64,000 nt of DNA, from NCBI RefSeq assembly GCF_003334305.1, contig NZ_QOWS01000002.1. One strand, written 5' to 3'. Source of the DNA: Escherichia coli (GTDB lineage: Bacteria; Pseudomonadota; Gammaproteobacteria; Enterobacterales; Enterobacteriaceae). The position numbers and the translations under genes were made by a program. The notes below the pieces were generated by a model, which worked only from the letters and a program-made list of their open reading frames with translations, did no database searches and had not been told where the DNA came from. Shown here one piece after another: positions 939-43,752 of the stretch. How positions within the stretch are numbered: position 1 is the first letter of the stretch; each line of letters starts with the position of its first letter.

Positions 939-1847
939 ATGGCTGCCATTAATACGAAAGTCAAAAAAGCCGTTATCCCCGTTGCGGGATTAGGAACCAG
1001 GATGTTGCCGGCGACGAAAGCCATCCCGAAAGAGATGCTGCCACTTGTCGATAAGCCATTAATTCAATACGTCGTGAATGAATGTATTGCGGCTGGCATT
1101 ACTGAAATTGTGCTGGTTACACACTCATCTAAAAACTCTATTGAAAACCACTTTGATACCAGTTTTGAACTGGAAGCAATGCTGGAAAAACGTGTAAAAC
1201 GTCAACTGCTTGATGAAGTGCAGTCTATTTGTCCACCGCACGTGACTATTATGCAAGTTCGTCAGGGTCTGGCGAAAGGCCTGGGACACGCGGTATTGTG
1301 TGCTCACCCGGTAGTGGGTGATGAACCGGTAGCTGTTATTTTGCCTGATGTTATTCTGGATGAATATGAATCCGATTTGTCACAGGATAACCTGGCAGAG
1401 ATGATCCGCCGCTTTGATGAAACGGGTCATAGCCAGATCATGGTTGAACCGGTTGCTGATGTGACCGCATATGGCGTTGTGGATTGCAAAGGCGTTGAAT
1501 TAGCGCCTGGTGAAAGCGTACCGATGGTTGGTGTGGTAGAAAAACCGAAAGCGGATGTTGCGCCGTCTAATCTCGCTATTGTGGGTCGTTACGTACTTAG
1601 CGCGGATATTTGGCCGTTGCTGGCAAAAACCCCTCCGGGAGCTGGTGATGAAATTCAGCTCACCGACGCAATTGATATGCTGATCGAAAAAGAAACGGTG
1701 GAAGCCTATCATATGAAAGGGAAGAGCCATGACTGCGGTAATAAATTAGGTTACATGCAGGCCTTCGTTGAATACGGTATTCGTCATAACACCCTTGGCA
1801 CGGAATTTAAAGCCTGGCTTGAAGAAGAGATGGGCATTAAGAAGTAA
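939..1847 (+). CDS. galU: UTP--glucose-1-phosphate uridylyltransferase
   Basis: 302 aa ORF, N-terminus [35 protein letters not shown] with nucleotidyltransferase G-rich loop; length matches GalU. Confidence 0.96.
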
Positions 1848-1870
1848 CATCCGTATCGGTGTTATCCACG

Positions 1871-1903
1871 AAACGGCGTTGAGCAATCGACGCCGTTTTT
1901 TTA
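1871..1903 (+). terminator. Rho-independent terminator downstream of galU
   Basis: Stem aaacggcgt/acgccgttt around a 10 nt loop, followed by a T-run (cgccgttttttt). Confidence 0.7.
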
Positions 1904-1940
1904 TAGCTTATTCTTATTAAATTGTCTTAAACCGGACAAT

Positions 1941-1968
1941 AAAAAATCCCGCCGCTGGCGGGATTTTA
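1941..1968 (-). terminator. Rho-independent terminator of hns (A-run/T-run flanked, potentially bidirectional)
   Basis: aaaaaatcccgccgctggcgggatttt: GC stem flanked by A-run and T-run, directly 3' of the hns stop. Confidence 0.75.
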
Positions 1969-1990
1969 AGCAAGTGCAATCTACAAAAGA

Positions 1991-2404
1991 TTATTGCTTG
2001 ATCAGGAAATCGTCGAGGGATTTACCTTGCTCATCCATTGCTTTTTTGATTACAGCTGGAGTACGGCCTTGGCCAGTCCAGGTTTTAGTTTCGCCGTTTT
2101 CGTCAACGTAGCTATATTTTGCCGGACGCTGAGCACGTTTAGCTTTGGTGCCAGATTTAACGGCAGCAAGGCTATTCAGCAGTTCGTTCGGGTCAATACC
2201 GTCAGCGATCAGCATTTCGCGATATTGCTGCAGTTTACGAGTGCGCTCTTCAACTTCAGCAGCAGCCGCGCTTTCTTCTTCGCGACGTTCGTTAACAACA
2301 ACTTCTAATTTTTCCAGCATTTCTTCCAGCGTTTCAAGTGTACATTCTCTTGCCTGCGCACGAAGAGTACGGATGTTGTTCAGAATTTTAAGTGCTTCGC
2401 TCAT
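1991..2404 (-). CDS. hns: Nucleoid-associated protein H-NS
   Basis: 137 aa [40 protein letters not shown]...; exact H-NS length and sequence as I recall it. Confidence 0.97.
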
Positions 2405-3008
2405 TGTAGTAATCTCAAACTTATATTGGGGTGGTTTGTTGAGGTAATAATAGAGCCTTAAATTCAGTTGTGCAATAGCCAGGAATGTAAGGAATTCAAA
2501 ATTGTTCTTTATTTTGTGCCGCCAATAAATATCTTTTCATAAAATTAGCCAGAAAAGACGCGGCATATAGCCCTATTTACACCGATGATTTCGCAGCACG
2601 TGAGGTTAAAACTTCCTGATTCATGTCACATTTTATGGGGAGATTATCGTAGGCTGACGACCTTTCAGTCTTCTGTATTAGTTGTGTTTACGAGAATTCC
2701 CTATTAAGCGAATGATGAAAAGTAGAACAGTCGCAATAAGAGCATGGACTTAGTATTGCACTATCTCCTGGAGGTCAACAGAGGGCTATTACTTGCGCAA
2801 CAGGTTAAAGATTGTGAATAGTTACCAGCAGTCATTTACCCGCTTATAACAAGCGAGGCAGTTGTAATGATAGCTCAGAAGGATTATGCAAGGCTTCGTA
2901 AGGGAGAACGCATATACCCACTTCTGTGCATACTGTTGAGCTGAAAAACTGACGAATTATGATAAACTCCAGCCAACTTTATTTCATATCATTGAGGGCC
3001 TGTGGCTG

Positions 3009-39076: not shown

Positions 39077-40075
<999 letters not shown>

Positions 40076-40393
40076 TTTCTTGCGTTATTTTCGGCACCTT
40101 TTATGTAGCGAAGGTGCCGGAATATATTCTCTTTTGTTACTTATTTCTATACCGTGCACAATATTTTTATCCCTCATATTTATAGGGTAAATTACCTGTA
40201 AAGTAGTGTCTAATTACCCGCCTCGCAAACTCCAGTTTTCAAATATCTATTTCAGGTCAAAAGATTGAATTATTCACTGGAGACGATTCGTAAATTCGCT
40301 GGATTTTTGACTAAAGTTTCTTTAGGATTTGTCTCATCGTATGATTAATTACACCAATCGTTCAACGTCTTGCTGATAAGTGATGGCGATTAT

Positions 40394-40534
40394 ATGAGGT
40401 TAGCAATGCCTTCTGGAAATCAGGAACCCCGCCGCGATCCTGAATTAAAACGTAAAGCCTGGCTGGCGGTTTTTCTTGGTTCTGCACTTTTCTGGGTGGT
40501 TGTCGCACTGCTGATTTGGAAAGTGTGGGGATAA
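40394..40534 (+). CDS. ymiA: Small membrane protein YmiA (46 aa; alternative start at 40406 gives 42 aa)
   Basis: Micro-ORF MRLAMPSGNQEPRRDPELKRKAWLAVFLGSALFWVVVALLIWKVWG with one predicted TM helix; below the 60 aa ORF-track cutoff, read directly from sequence. Confidence 0.5.
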   Translation: MRLAMPSGNQEPRRDPELKRKAWLAVFLGSALFWVVVALLIWKVWG

Positions 40535-40536
40535 CT

Positions 40537-40704
40537 ATGGTCGGTCAGGAGCAACTGGAGTCGTCACCATTATGCCAGCATAGTGACAATGAAACAGAAA
40601 CGAAACGGGAATGTTCCGTCGTTATTCCAGACGACTGGCAACTAACATCGCAGCAGCAAGCCTTTATAGAACTGTTTGCTGAAGATGATCAGCCGAAACA
40701 ATAA
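40537..40704 (+). CDS. yciX: Small acidic protein YciX (55 aa)
   Basis: ORF trimmed to MVGQEQLESSPLCQHSDNETETKRECSVVIPDDWQLTSQQQAFIELFAEDDQPKQ; begins 3 nt after the ymiA stop. Confidence 0.5.
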   Translation: MVGQEQLESSPLCQHSDNETETKRECSVVIPDDWQLTSQQQAFIELFAEDDQPKQ

Positions 40705-41076
40705 TTATCATCATTCTTATTACCCATTTTTAATGAATTAAAGGGCTTTTAATACACCGCAGCAATAACAGCTTGAGTTATCTCAACACAAAATAATAAC
40801 CGTTAAGGGTGTAGCCTATGATCAACACAAATATGAAATATTGGTCCTGGATGGGCGCGTTTTCTCTGTCGATGCTCTTCTGGGCCGAACTCCTCTGGAT
40901 CATTACTCACTGATCCTTGACCCCGCTGCGGCGGGGTTGTCATTTGCTTTGCCACAAGGTTTCTCCTCTTTTATCAATTTGGGTTGTTATCAAATCGTTA
41001 CGCGATGTTTGTGTTATCTTTAATATTCACCCTGAAGAGAATCAGTGCTTCGCAACCCTGTCATTAAGGAGGAGCT

Positions 41077-43752
41077 ATGTCGTCAACCCTACGAGAAGCC
41101 AGTAAGGACACGTTGCAGGCCAAAGATAAAACTTACCACTACTACAGCCTGCCGCTTGCTGCTAAATCACTGGGCGATATCACCCGTCTGCCCAAGTCAC
41201 TCAAAGTTTTGCTCGAAAACCTGCTGCGCTGGCAGGATGGTAACTCGGTTACCGAAGAGGATATCCACGCGCTGGCAGGATGGCTGAAAAATGCCCATGC
41301 TGACCGTGAAATTGCCTACCGCCCGGCAAGGGTGCTGATGCAGGACTTTACCGGCGTACCTGCCGTTGTTGATCTGGCGGCAATGCGCGAAGCGGTTAAA
41401 CGCCTCGGCGGCGATACTGCAAAGGTTAACCCGCTCTCACCGGTCGACCTGGTCATTGACCACTCGGTGACCGTCGATCGTTTTGGTGATGATGAGGCAT
41501 TTGAAGAAAACGTACGCCTGGAAATGGAGCGCAACCACGAACGTTATGTGTTCCTGAAATGGGGAAAGCAAGCGTTCAGTCGGTTTAGCGTCGTGCCGCC
41601 AGGCACAGGCATTTGCCATCAGGTTAACCTCGAATATCTCGGCAAAGCAGTGTGGAGTGAATTGCAGGACGGTGAATGGATTGCTTATCCGGATACACTC
41701 GTTGGTACTGACTCGCACACCACTATGATCAACGGCCTTGGCGTGCTGGGGTGGGGCGTGGGTGGGATCGAAGCAGAAGCCGCAATGTTAGGCCAGCCGG
41801 TTTCCATGCTTATCCCGGACGTAGTGGGCTTTAAACTTACCGGTAAATTACGTGAAGGTATTACCGCCACAGACCTAGTTCTCACTGTTACCCAAATGCT
41901 GCGCAAACATGGCGTGGTGGGGAAATTCGTCGAATTTTATGGTGATGGTCTGGATTCACTACCGCTGGCGGATCGCGCCACCATTGCCAATATGTCGCCA
42001 GAATATGGTGCCACCTGTGGCTTCTTCCCAATCGATGCTGTAACCCTCGATTACATGCGTTTAAGCGGGCGCAGCGAAGATCAGGTTGAGTTGGTCGAAA
42101 AATATGCCAAAGCGCAGGGCATGTGGCGTAACCCGGGCGATGAACCGATTTTTACCAGTACGTTAGAACTGGATATGAATGACGTTGAAGCGAGCCTGGC
42201 AGGGCCAAAACGCCCACAGGATCGCGTTGCACTGCCCGATGTACCAAAAGCATTTGCCGCCAGTAACGAACTGGAAGTGAATGCCACGCATAAAGATCGC
42301 CAGCCGGTCGATTATGTTATGAACGGACATCAGTATCAGTTACCTGATGGCGCTGTGGTCATTGCTGCGATAACCTCGTGCACCAACACCTCTAACCCAA
42401 GTGTGCTGATGGCTGCAGGCTTGCTGGCGAAAAAAGCCGTAACTCTTGGCCTCAAGCGGCAACCGTGGGTCAAAGCGTCGCTGGCACCAGGCTCGAAAGT
42501 TGTTTCTGATTATCTGGCAAAAGCGAAATTGACACCGTATCTCGACGAACTGGGGTTTAACCTTGTGGGATACGGTTGTACCACCTGTATTGGTAACTCT
42601 GGGCCGCTGCCCGATCCTATCGAAACGGCAATCAAAAAAGGCGATTTAACCGTCGGTGCAGTGCTGTCCGGCAACCGTAACTTTGAAGGCCGTATCCATC
42701 CGCTGGTTAAAACCAACTGGCTGGCCTCGCCGCCGCTGGTGGTTGCCTATGCGCTGGCGGGAAATATGAATATCAACCTGGCTTCTGAGCCTATCGGCCA
42801 TGATCGTAAAGGCGATCCGGTATATCTGAAAGATATCTGGCCATCGGCACAAGAAATTGCCCGTGCGGTAGAACAAGTCTCCACAGAAATGTTCCGCAAA
42901 GAGTACGCAGAAGTTTTTGAAGGCACAGCAGAGTGGAAGGAAATTAACGTCACACGATCCGATACCTACGGTTGGCAGGAGGACTCAACCTATATTCGCT
43001 TATCGCCTTTCTTTGATGAAATGCAGGCAACACCAGCACCAGTGGAAGATATTCACGGTGCGCGGATCCTCGCAATGCTGGGGGATTCAGTCACCACTGA
43101 CCATATCTCTCCGGCGGGCAGTATTAAGCCCGACAGCCCAGCGGGTCGATATCTACAAGGTCGGGGTGTTGAGCGAAAAGACTTTAACTCCTACGGTTCG
43201 CGGCGTGGTAACCATGAAGTGATGATGCGCGGCACCTTCGCCAATATTCGCATCCGTAATGAAATGGTGCCTGGCGTTGAAGGGGGGATGACGCGGCATT
43301 TACCTGACAGCGACGTAGTCTCTATTTATGATGCTGCGATGCGCTATAAGCAGGAACAAACGCCGCTGGCGGTGATTGCCGGGAAAGAGTATGGATCAGG
43401 CTCAAGCCGTGACTGGGCGGCAAAAGGTCCTCGTCTGCTTGGAATTCGTGTGGTGATTGCCGAATCGTTTGAACGAATTCACCGTTCGAATTTAATTGGC
43501 ATGGGCATCCTGCCGCTGGAATTTCCGCAAGGCGTAACGCGTAAAACGTTAGGACTAACCGGGGAAGAGAAGATTGATATTGGCGATCTGCAAAATCTAC
43601 AACCCGGTGCGACGGTTCCGGTGACGCTTACGCGCGCGGATGGTAGCCAGGAGGTCGTACCCTGCCGTTGTCGTATCGACACCGCGACGGAGTTGACCTA
43701 CTACCAGAACGACGGCATTTTGCATTATGTCATTCGTAATATGTTGAAGTAA
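41077..43752 (+). CDS. acnA: Aconitate hydratase A
   Basis: 891 aa ORF with aconitase Fe-S ligand motifs and C-terminal swivel domain; length matches AcnA. Confidence 0.96.

Follow-up and report, generated by a model that had tools for sequence, protein, structure and literature searches.

The cysB–acnA interval and its small genes

In this study, we undertook a computational analysis of a 64,000-nucleotide stretch of Escherichia coli chromosomal DNA (the window), in which the interval between cysB (39101–40075) and acnA (41077–43752) carries three small genes, the order on the + strand being cysB, ymiA, yciX, ymiC and acnA. This 1-kb interval was found in 5422 of 5426 complete E. coli genomes, and RefSeq annotates all three of its small genes:

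40394..40534, + strand: ymiA coding sequence, 46 aa, from the ATG at 40394 to the TAA at 40532–40534; product MRLAMPSGNQEPRRDPELKRKAWLAVFLGSALFWVVVALLIWKVWG
40537..40704, + strand: yciX coding sequence, 55 aa, from the ATG at 40537 to the TAA at 40702–40704; product MVGQEQ...FIELFAEDDQPKQ
40818..40913, + strand: ymiC coding sequence, 31 aa; third gene of the operon, encoding a small membrane protein

The first-pass annotation, made from the letters of this DNA, had described two open reading frames of 46 and 55 codons; their translations were reproduced exactly and the same two coding sequences are present in RefSeq. Its statement that ymiA and yciX are annotated genes lying 5' of acnA was also correct, RefSeq listing ymiA, yciX, then ymiC and acnA. 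The spacing of 3 nt that it gave for the two frames was not reproduced, as the distance measured from the ymiA stop to the yciX ATG is 2 nt (CT). The coding sequence at the yciX position, directly 3' of ymiA, is that of WP_001297116.1, 'protein YciX' (a 100%-identical record), and the ymiC product matches NF041484 with 66.3 bits against a cut-off of 42. ymiA and yciX are real, previously annotated E. coli small-protein genes, and YmiA has been partly characterised. The earlier description of both as essentially uncharacterised still fits YciX as far as the literature searched goes, but no longer YmiA, whose start, copy number, induction and localisation have been published.

The limits of the transcription unit are marked by the following features:

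40089..40122, + strand: terminator-like hairpin after cysB, with a 13-pair stem and then a T-rich tail; upstream boundary of the ymiA unit
40745..40947, + strand: match to Rfam STnc180 (RF02079; E=6.4e-43, 198 bits, gathering score 50), covering the 3' portion of the operon transcript with ymiC inside it
40918..40949, + strand: intrinsic-terminator-like hairpin with its T-rich tail (hairpin 40918–40939), 9-pair stem with 6 GC pairs, tail TCATTTGCTT

The region directly 5' of ymiC has been found inactive as a promoter (10.1101/2020.05.05.079178; PMC11429745), and therefore the operon consists of ymiA, yciX and ymiC. The hairpin at 40918 falls where the STnc180 match stops on its 3' side, and it closes the operon before acnA. 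STnc180 corresponds to the 3' third of the ymiA-yciX-ymiC transcript and lies 3' of ymiA-yciX. Northern signals of 500–2000 nt for six candidates including STnc180 were regarded by Sittka et al. as likely processed mRNA species, not as independent sRNAs (PMC2515195).

Selection on the three frames was examined in 80 species-level loci from Enterobacteriaceae and Erwiniaceae, retrieved with a back-translated YmiA pattern. The order cysB-ymiA-yciX-ymiC-acnA is retained in nearly all 80, including every locus of sufficient length; both the ymiA and yciX frames are open and syntenic in 79, and ymiC is kept in 70. The ratio pN/pS was pooled inside four clades, with the two shifted frames serving as control:

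ymiA: 0.08–0.14 in frame, 1.59–5.55 in the two shifted frames
yciX: 0.31–0.41 in frame, 0.98–1.79 in the two shifted frames
ymiC: 0.19–0.30 in frame, 0.97–2.22 in the two shifted frames
yciX, last 26 codons (C-terminal part with the motif described below): 0.16–0.28 in frame
yciX, N-terminal part: 0.44–0.60 in frame

Codon-level conservation inconsistent with coding had been named at the outset as grounds for rejecting the two frames; with in-frame values of 0.08–0.41 and shifted-frame values of at least 0.97, the loci point instead to coding. These substitution patterns indicate that ymiA, yciX and ymiC all evolve as proteins under purifying selection, which is relaxed on yciX relative to ymiA (0.3–0.4 versus 0.08–0.14).

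The same values bear on a reading in which the yciX frame matters chiefly as RNA or DNA and not as a protein, either as a spacer or translated leader that controls ymiC or the stability of the STnc180 fragment, or as the site of the distal acnA promoter. The 3' part of the transcript being a recognised stable RNA species would be in keeping with such a role, as would our literature search having found neither protein-level nor functional data for YciX. Cunningham, Gruer and Guest reportedly mapped, in 1997, a sigma-S-dependent acnA P1 start 407 bp 5' of acnA. That start would presumably sit near 40670, within yciX, although a paper confirming its position was not found in the literature search. 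However, yciX has an in-frame synonymous bias that is strongest in the C-terminal motif (0.16–0.28) and absent in the shifted frames, and the amino-acid motif persists at ~20–30% identity and at loci that have no ymiC or acnA downstream. We therefore consider an RNA or DNA role for the frame to be highly improbable.

YmiA and the YciX family

YmiA belongs to the YmiA-like family, its matches lying above the curated HMM threshold and spanning the full length of the models (Pfam PF22868, YmiA-like, E=5.6e-37, model positions 1–46 of 46; NCBIfam NF000536, 96.8 bits against a cut-off of 30, model positions 1–42 of 42). Its architecture also fits the family: a basic juxtamembrane KRK leads into one transmembrane (TM) helix, and the protein ends in WxxWG. 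K19, R20, K21, W23, S30 and V37 are invariant across species, F33, W34, W42 and W45 are conserved in at least 90%, and the C-terminus is WG in 78 of 79 loci. The single TM helix that had been proposed for the first frame is borne out by these matches, by a helix at residues 16–46 in an AlphaFold2 (AF2) model of a YmiA-linker-YciX-linker-YmiC fusion and by the published membrane localisation of YmiA tagged N-terminally with GFP (PMC11429745). YmiA spans the inner membrane once and has its N-terminus in the cytoplasm, a topology in keeping with the KRK ahead of the helix and with the C-terminal tail of 4 residues. Its basic, conserved 22-residue N-terminal tail lies on the cytoplasmic side.

Alternative in-frame ymiA starts are a TTG at 40370 (54 aa) and an ATG at 40406 (42 aa; preceded by GAGG at 40396–40399), and Met5 is the only YmiA methionine that is invariant across species. 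Initiation profiling mapped the start to MRLAMP (10.1101/511675), and a non-annotated ymiA start was also seen in an earlier tetracycline-based study. YmiA is present at ~1000–3000 copies per cell according to targeted mass spectrometry (PMC12529367). Its deletion caused no phenotype, its overexpression caused a lag of 8–10 h and longer cells, an effect abolished by mutation of the start codon, and overproduction was toxic for 6 of 7 small membrane proteins (PMC11429745).

The effects of YmiA overexpressed alone could be taken to mean that YciX is an antidote-like antagonist of a membrane-toxic YmiA, the two forming a toxin/antitoxin-like couple that regulates no third protein; stoichiometric co-production from a coupled junction would suit such an arrangement. 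Like the type I toxins DinQ, TisB, Ldr and Hok, YmiA is small, hydrophobic, single-helix and growth-inhibitory in excess. Unlike them, it is constitutively detectable and is encoded by a syntenic core gene, and its cytoplasmic KRK tail and conserved protein partner are not type I toxin features. A scan of 40000–41150 with Rfam by E-value revealed no antisense RNA family, the only match besides STnc180 being a spurious snoRNA (E=0.87); YmiA therefore fails the type I toxin definition as far as catalogued families are concerned, a novel antisense RNA being outside the reach of such a scan. There was likewise no Rfam sRNA partner, and neither PADLOC nor PHROGs had a match at the locus. The antidote reading is further weakened by the 1000–3000 YmiA copies that cells carry without harm, by the loss of yciX in Salmonella enterica subsp. 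arizonae where ymiA stayed, by ymiA-yciX being a syntenic core pair rather than a mobile addiction module, and by overproduction toxicity being common among small membrane proteins (6 of 7; PMC11429745). Taken together, we judge it distinctly unlikely.

YciX has no match among the Pfam, NCBIfam, PADLOC and PHROGs models, and neither a signal peptide nor a TM segment was predicted in it. The first-pass annotation had called it strongly acidic, which is true of the E. coli protein (net charge −9) but does not extend to the family, as the majority of orthologues range from +1 to +5; acidity is therefore a trait of the Escherichia lineage and not a conserved feature. A word-index protein search had made YciX appear to be an orphan of Escherichia and Shigella only. 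This proved to be an artefact of sensitivity, since both tblastn against the syntenic loci and a search with a profile reached wider. With tblastn and ORF extraction, 79 of the 80 Enterobacteriaceae and Erwiniaceae loci were found to have a frame of 49–59 aa immediately following ymiA. Identity of these homologues to E. coli YciX drops to 21–45%, with retention of the motif (I/V)PxxWxL(T/S)xxQ(Q/R)xFI(D/E)xF, which persists down to ~20–30% overall identity. Its location in the window is:

40624..40677, + strand: codons of the conserved YciX motif, residues 30–47, IPDDWQLTSQQQAFIELF

In an alignment of 75 sequences, W34, L36, Q40, F43 and I44 are invariant and P31 and F47 are conserved in at least 90%; in an alignment of 25 diverse members, P31, W34, Q40, F43 and I44 are invariant. 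When 1.84 billion representatives were searched with a profile, 86 clusters at 50% identity were obtained, nearly all of them proteins of ~50–100 aa with the YciX motif. The extended family, as we define it here, comprises proteins of ~40–60 aa with (I/V)PxxWxL(T/S/N)xxQ(Q/R/K)xFI(D/E) that are encoded right after a YmiA-like gene, and E. coli YciX falls within it. The same search returned two long, low-complexity proteins, P0225 and P0234, that carry repeated GLSxEQQAFLERK units; these are probably algal and their resemblance to YciX is probably convergent.

AF2 placed a helix at YciX residues 38–51, with pLDDT of 86–91 for residues 31–50 and low confidence for the N-terminal half. YciX is thus predicted to be soluble, its N-terminal half being variable and disordered and its C-terminal part forming a conserved helix, and the T/S-x-x-Q directly before that helix reads as a capping box. 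A comparison of the YciX profile with PDB sequences gave a single hit, a sub-threshold likeness to helix 2 of staphylococcal protein A domains (LNEEQRNAFIQSLKDD; per-domain E above 200), which we attribute to helix-like composition and not to homology. The breadth of the YciX family and its motif are apparently new, since neither was found in the literature searched: a family that is conserved widely and carries a well-defined motif of 18 residues has so far received its name in Escherichia alone and lacks an HMM.

The ymiA promoter and its regulation

The ~240 nt 5' of ymiA are strongly conserved across genera. The elements recognised in this region are:

40256..40270, + strand: most conserved far-upstream block, GTCAAAAGATTGAAT; nearly invariant in an alignment of 22 Enterobacteriaceae upstream regions
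40300..40336, + strand: putative core promoter, comprising a -35-like hexamer, a -10-like hexamer, an inverted repeat and an RcsB box; block invariant or nearly so across genera; probable transcription start site (TSS) ~40336
40300–40305, + strand: weak -35-like TGGATT, a tentative hexamer assignment
40311–40325: inverted repeat CTAAAG-TTT-CTTTAG, within the core promoter
40323–40328, + strand: -10-like TAGGAT, a tentative hexamer assignment
40323–40336: RcsB box TAGGATTTGTCTCA, a 14-mer unique in the window

The 14-mer TAGGATTTGTCTCA is identical to an RcsB site listed genome-wide for Salmonella ymiA, where it extends from -13 to +1 of the mapped TSS, and the same list gives Salmonella ymiA a log2 fold change of -1.10 (PMC7913699). 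We placed the E. coli TSS at ~40336 because the homologous Salmonella site ends at +1. Expression data from a second source concern a LolCDE inhibitor, which we take to be an activator of the Rcs pathway. Under this inhibitor, yciX mRNA drops 3- to 12-fold (PMC5105897). With both a box and a change in expression in evidence, ymiA would appear to be a direct member of the RcsB regulon.

A reporter carrying the ymiA upstream region was induced by low Mg2+ in a PhoQ-dependent manner (PMC11429745). We searched for a PhoP box, (T/G)GTTTA-N5-(T/G)GTTTA near the -35 position, and found none that was convincing in 40076–40400, the best candidates having 3 of the 12 specified positions wrong. Therefore, control of ymiA by PhoQP may be indirect. 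The locus has also been reported to be under OmpR in Klebsiella and to be part of a Cpx-associated set in Salmonella. The 5' UTR of ymiA is conserved in sequence, and RNAalifold gave -3.8 kcal/mol with essentially no covariation, from which we conclude that it has no conserved secondary structure.

The ymiA-yciX junction and a model for the pair

The boundary between the first two genes of the operon is compact:

40526..40539, + strand: putative coupling junction TGGGGATAActATG, consisting of the Trp45-Gly46 codons (an SD-like G-run), TAA, a 2-nt spacer and the yciX ATG

The distance from the ymiA stop to the yciX start is 0, 1, 2, 3 or 4 nt in 3, 4, 34, 26 and 12 loci, respectively, which accounts for 79 of 79. 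The relative frame of the two genes differs between lineages at a distance of never more than 4 nt, indicating that the frame has changed several times without the distance leaving that range. In all 79 loci, an SD-like TGGGG or TGGAG lies 4–8 nt 5' of the yciX start, within the last YmiA codons. Given the WG end of YmiA, its last two codons would double as the Shine-Dalgarno (SD) sequence of yciX.

Pairs of YmiA-like and YciX-like genes also occur in three more distant loci. The two genes are separated by an 11-nt gap in L082 and overlap by ATGA in L083 and in L084. L084 still follows cysB, while L082 and L083 have other neighbours and lack ymiC and acnA. Since these two loci keep ymiA-yciX in a different neighbourhood, it is the pair itself that is conserved as a unit. 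The dual use of the Trp-Gly codons and the existence of the pair outside the cysB-acnA interval are apparently new, as neither was found in the literature searched.

The suggestion of translational coupling that had been drawn from the tight spacing agrees with this conservation, the layout being retained as such coupling would predict (0–4 nt with an SD-like sequence in 79 of 79 loci, and ATGA overlaps in distant pairs). The layout is that of a coupled pair: the same strand, a 2-nt gap, an SD inside the first gene and a conserved arrangement. The conservation of the pair beyond cysB-acnA appears to be the strongest computational support for the idea, and from the gene arrangement we infer that ymiA and yciX are translationally coupled. 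Nonetheless, yciX has its own SD and so could initiate independently of ymiA translation. In addition, S. enterica subsp. arizonae has kept ymiA and ymiC and lost the YciX motif, of which a 16-codon remnant is left, indicating that YmiA can persist without YciX.

The last observation could also reflect co-expression alone, in which a shared promoter and a compact junction serve two proteins that have different targets and do not contact one another. Gaps of a few nucleotides are common between the genes of an operon. The unequal rates of ymiA and yciX (pN/pS of 0.08–0.14 and 0.31–0.41, respectively) and the failure of an AF2 model of the fusion to show evident mutual stabilisation also agree with such a relationship. 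It accounts less well for the pair being kept, abutting or overlapping, in contexts unrelated to cysB-acnA, and the maintenance of a 0–4 nt junction through several frame-changing indels argues for selection on joint production. For these reasons, we regard co-expression alone as rather unlikely, although it deserves more weight than an antidote role for YciX.

On balance, we think it probable that YmiA and YciX are a coupled pair whose joint action, on the inner side of the membrane, is directed at an envelope-related target, under opposing control by PhoQP and Rcs. In this model, ymiA-yciX-ymiC would be expressed as an operon of ~0.6 kb from one regulated promoter, with its end at the 40918–40939 hairpin. 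PhoQP would raise expression at low Mg2+ and RcsB would lower it, through an RcsB box overlying the -10 and the start site. A ribosome would end ymiA 2 nt before the yciX ATG, with the SD-like G-run just 5'. Since the stop and start are only 2 nt apart and preceded by that G-run, synthesis of YciX would most likely rely on termination-reinitiation or on initiation that is facilitated locally, and would keep pace with that of YmiA. The capped helix of YciX (IPxxWxLTxxQQxFIDxF) may be a short binding motif, and YciX would cooperate with YmiA on the cytoplasmic side of the membrane. Potentially, the pair modulates a larger envelope-related protein, for which other PhoQP-induced small membrane proteins offer a precedent. 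We infer both a physical contact between YmiA and YciX and the existence and envelope-related nature of the target.

A stronger form of the model would have YmiA and YciX as an obligate module conserved across Enterobacteriaceae and Erwiniaceae. In it, YmiA would dock the YciX helix, a short linear motif, at the membrane, and the complex, with PhoQP and Rcs controlling it in opposite directions, would tune a factor of the envelope, of growth or of division. We consider this form doubtful. The AF2 model of the YmiA-linker-YciX-linker-YmiC fusion, obtained with a paired alignment, has three helices, and confidence for the YciX helix is 73 in the fusion versus 86–91 for YciX alone, a comparison drawn from a model that came without contact or PAE output. 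If the stronger form were true, there would be an unrecognised and as yet unmodelled family of soluble proteins that partner small membrane proteins, with YciX as its first member.

YmiA resembles the class of PhoQP-induced proteins that includes MgrB, MgtS and PmrR/YoaI, being <50 aa, single-pass and membrane-localised, with PhoQ-dependent induction at low Mg2+ and a lag upon overexpression. By analogy to MgrB and MgtS, YmiA might be expected to bind a larger membrane protein. It differs from that class in that ymiA has no recognisable PhoP box and its deletion has no phenotype, and from MgrB and MgtS in that the ymiA stop abuts the start of a gene for a conserved soluble protein, YciX, in almost all genomes with ymiA. 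Small proteins form a little-explored level of stress regulation in bacteria, and most of those in E. coli lack a known target; here, a pair of them is switched in opposite directions by two envelope-sensing systems. Handles for finding the target are available: point mutants of the motif, mutants affected in coupling, and the deletion and IS1 alleles of natural strains, in which IS1 lies at 40302–40309 or 40275–40283. The comparative additions made here on the YciX family, the junction and the pair are useful and incremental.

Both proteins of the ymiA-yciX pair are conserved across two bacterial families and the second has a defined motif. In their layout, ymiA-yciX and the overlapping or abutting pairs mgtS-mgtT and yriA-yriB are alike, each having two small ORFs on one transcript, a stop and start a few nucleotides apart and co-induction at low Mg2+ (PMC11429745).

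The 3' end of the ymiA-yciX-ymiC transcript

STnc180 had earlier been suspected to be a processed mRNA fragment (Sittka 2008, PMC2515195). An Rfam scan placed a match to this family over the distal part of the operon:

40745-40947, + strand, STnc180 (RF02079), 198 bits

Both the ymiC coding sequence (40818-40913) and the terminator-like hairpin (40918-40939) lie inside this match, and therefore the STnc180 'sRNA' family corresponds to the 3'-terminal part of the operon mRNA (ymiA-yciX-ymiC), with a translated 31-codon gene within it. The distal, sigma-S-dependent promoter of acnA, P1, reportedly has its mapped position 407 bp before the start codon of acnA. This distance would place it at ~40670, in the 3' end of yciX. 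If P1 is at that position, its transcript would include ymiC and would need to read through the hairpin.

Starts, fusions and possible relatives of the small proteins

The start codon of ymiA is ambiguous, as three in-frame candidates lie within 40370-40408:

40370, + strand, TTG, 54 aa product
40394, + strand, ATG, 46 aa product, the choice of RefSeq and of initiation profiling
40406, + strand, ATG, 42 aa product

Among the candidates, only the Met at ATG 40406 is invariant across species, and this codon also has the best Shine-Dalgarno sequence (GAGG, 40396-40399, 6 nt upstream). Many genera encode a 53-aa form of YmiA from an upstream in-frame ATG. At the other end of the gene, a few E. coli assemblies encode YmiA-YciX fusions of 97-99 aa (proteins P0250, P0244, P0249 and P0004). 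The junction in P0250 (...WKVWGITMVGQ...) is consistent with one additional G in the TGGGGA run (G-run 40526-40530), and the fusions may reflect either genuine slippage or sequencing errors in the homopolymer.

The membrane helices of YmiA and YmiC have in common the pattern K-x-x-W...F-x-x-S-x-LFW, and a profile-profile comparison aligned the two over 20 columns with a probability of 83% and E=8.6e-6, scores of a kind that transmembrane segments can inflate. From their sequences, the two proteins may be paralogues. The helix motif of YciX, LTxxQQxFIDxF, weakly resembles GLSxEQQAFLERK, a unit that recurs along two long proteins of low complexity (P0225 and P0234), and also resembles weakly the staphylococcal protein A domains (PDB 5h7a) in their helix 2. 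Each of these resemblances is below significance per repeat and they are probably convergent.

Insertions, deletions and conservation across the locus

The cysB/ymiA intergenic region (40076-40393) is among only three 'promoter islands' without a foreign-gene association (PMC3661553), and an alignment of upstream regions revealed its high conservation across genera, which is unusual among AT-rich promoter islands. Many E. coli strains carry IS1 in the ymiA promoter region (loci L085, L086 and L088), where two insertions were located:

40302-40309, IS1 junction that falls between the -35-like hexamer and the -10-like one, target duplication GATTTTTG
40275-40283, second insertion, IS1B, in the opposite orientation to the first IS1 and 27 bp upstream of it

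A search of 5426 complete E. coli genomes found the first junction, with its target duplication, in 357. In strain MEI008, IS1 is accompanied by a deletion reaching 40740, by which ymiA and yciX are lost and ymiC is kept.

Loss of yciX was also found in Salmonella enterica subsp. arizonae (L030, 2641-2830), in which a ~100 bp deletion has left a 16-codon remnant beside intact ymiA and ymiC genes. Full yciX genes are present in subsp. enterica (L087) and subsp. diarizonae (L024), both starting with GTG immediately 3' of the ymiA TAA.

The cysB-ymiA-acnA locus of 'Chryseobacterium sp. 18061' (L021) is typical of Enterobacteriaceae and nearly identical to that of 'Citrobacter sp. 18056' (L027), and 'Enterobacter cancerogenus M004' (L071) and 'Enterobacter ludwigii EnVs2' (L074) have Pantoea-type YmiA, YciX and YmiC. 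Judged by these sequences, the labels of the L021, L071 and L074 assemblies look wrong.
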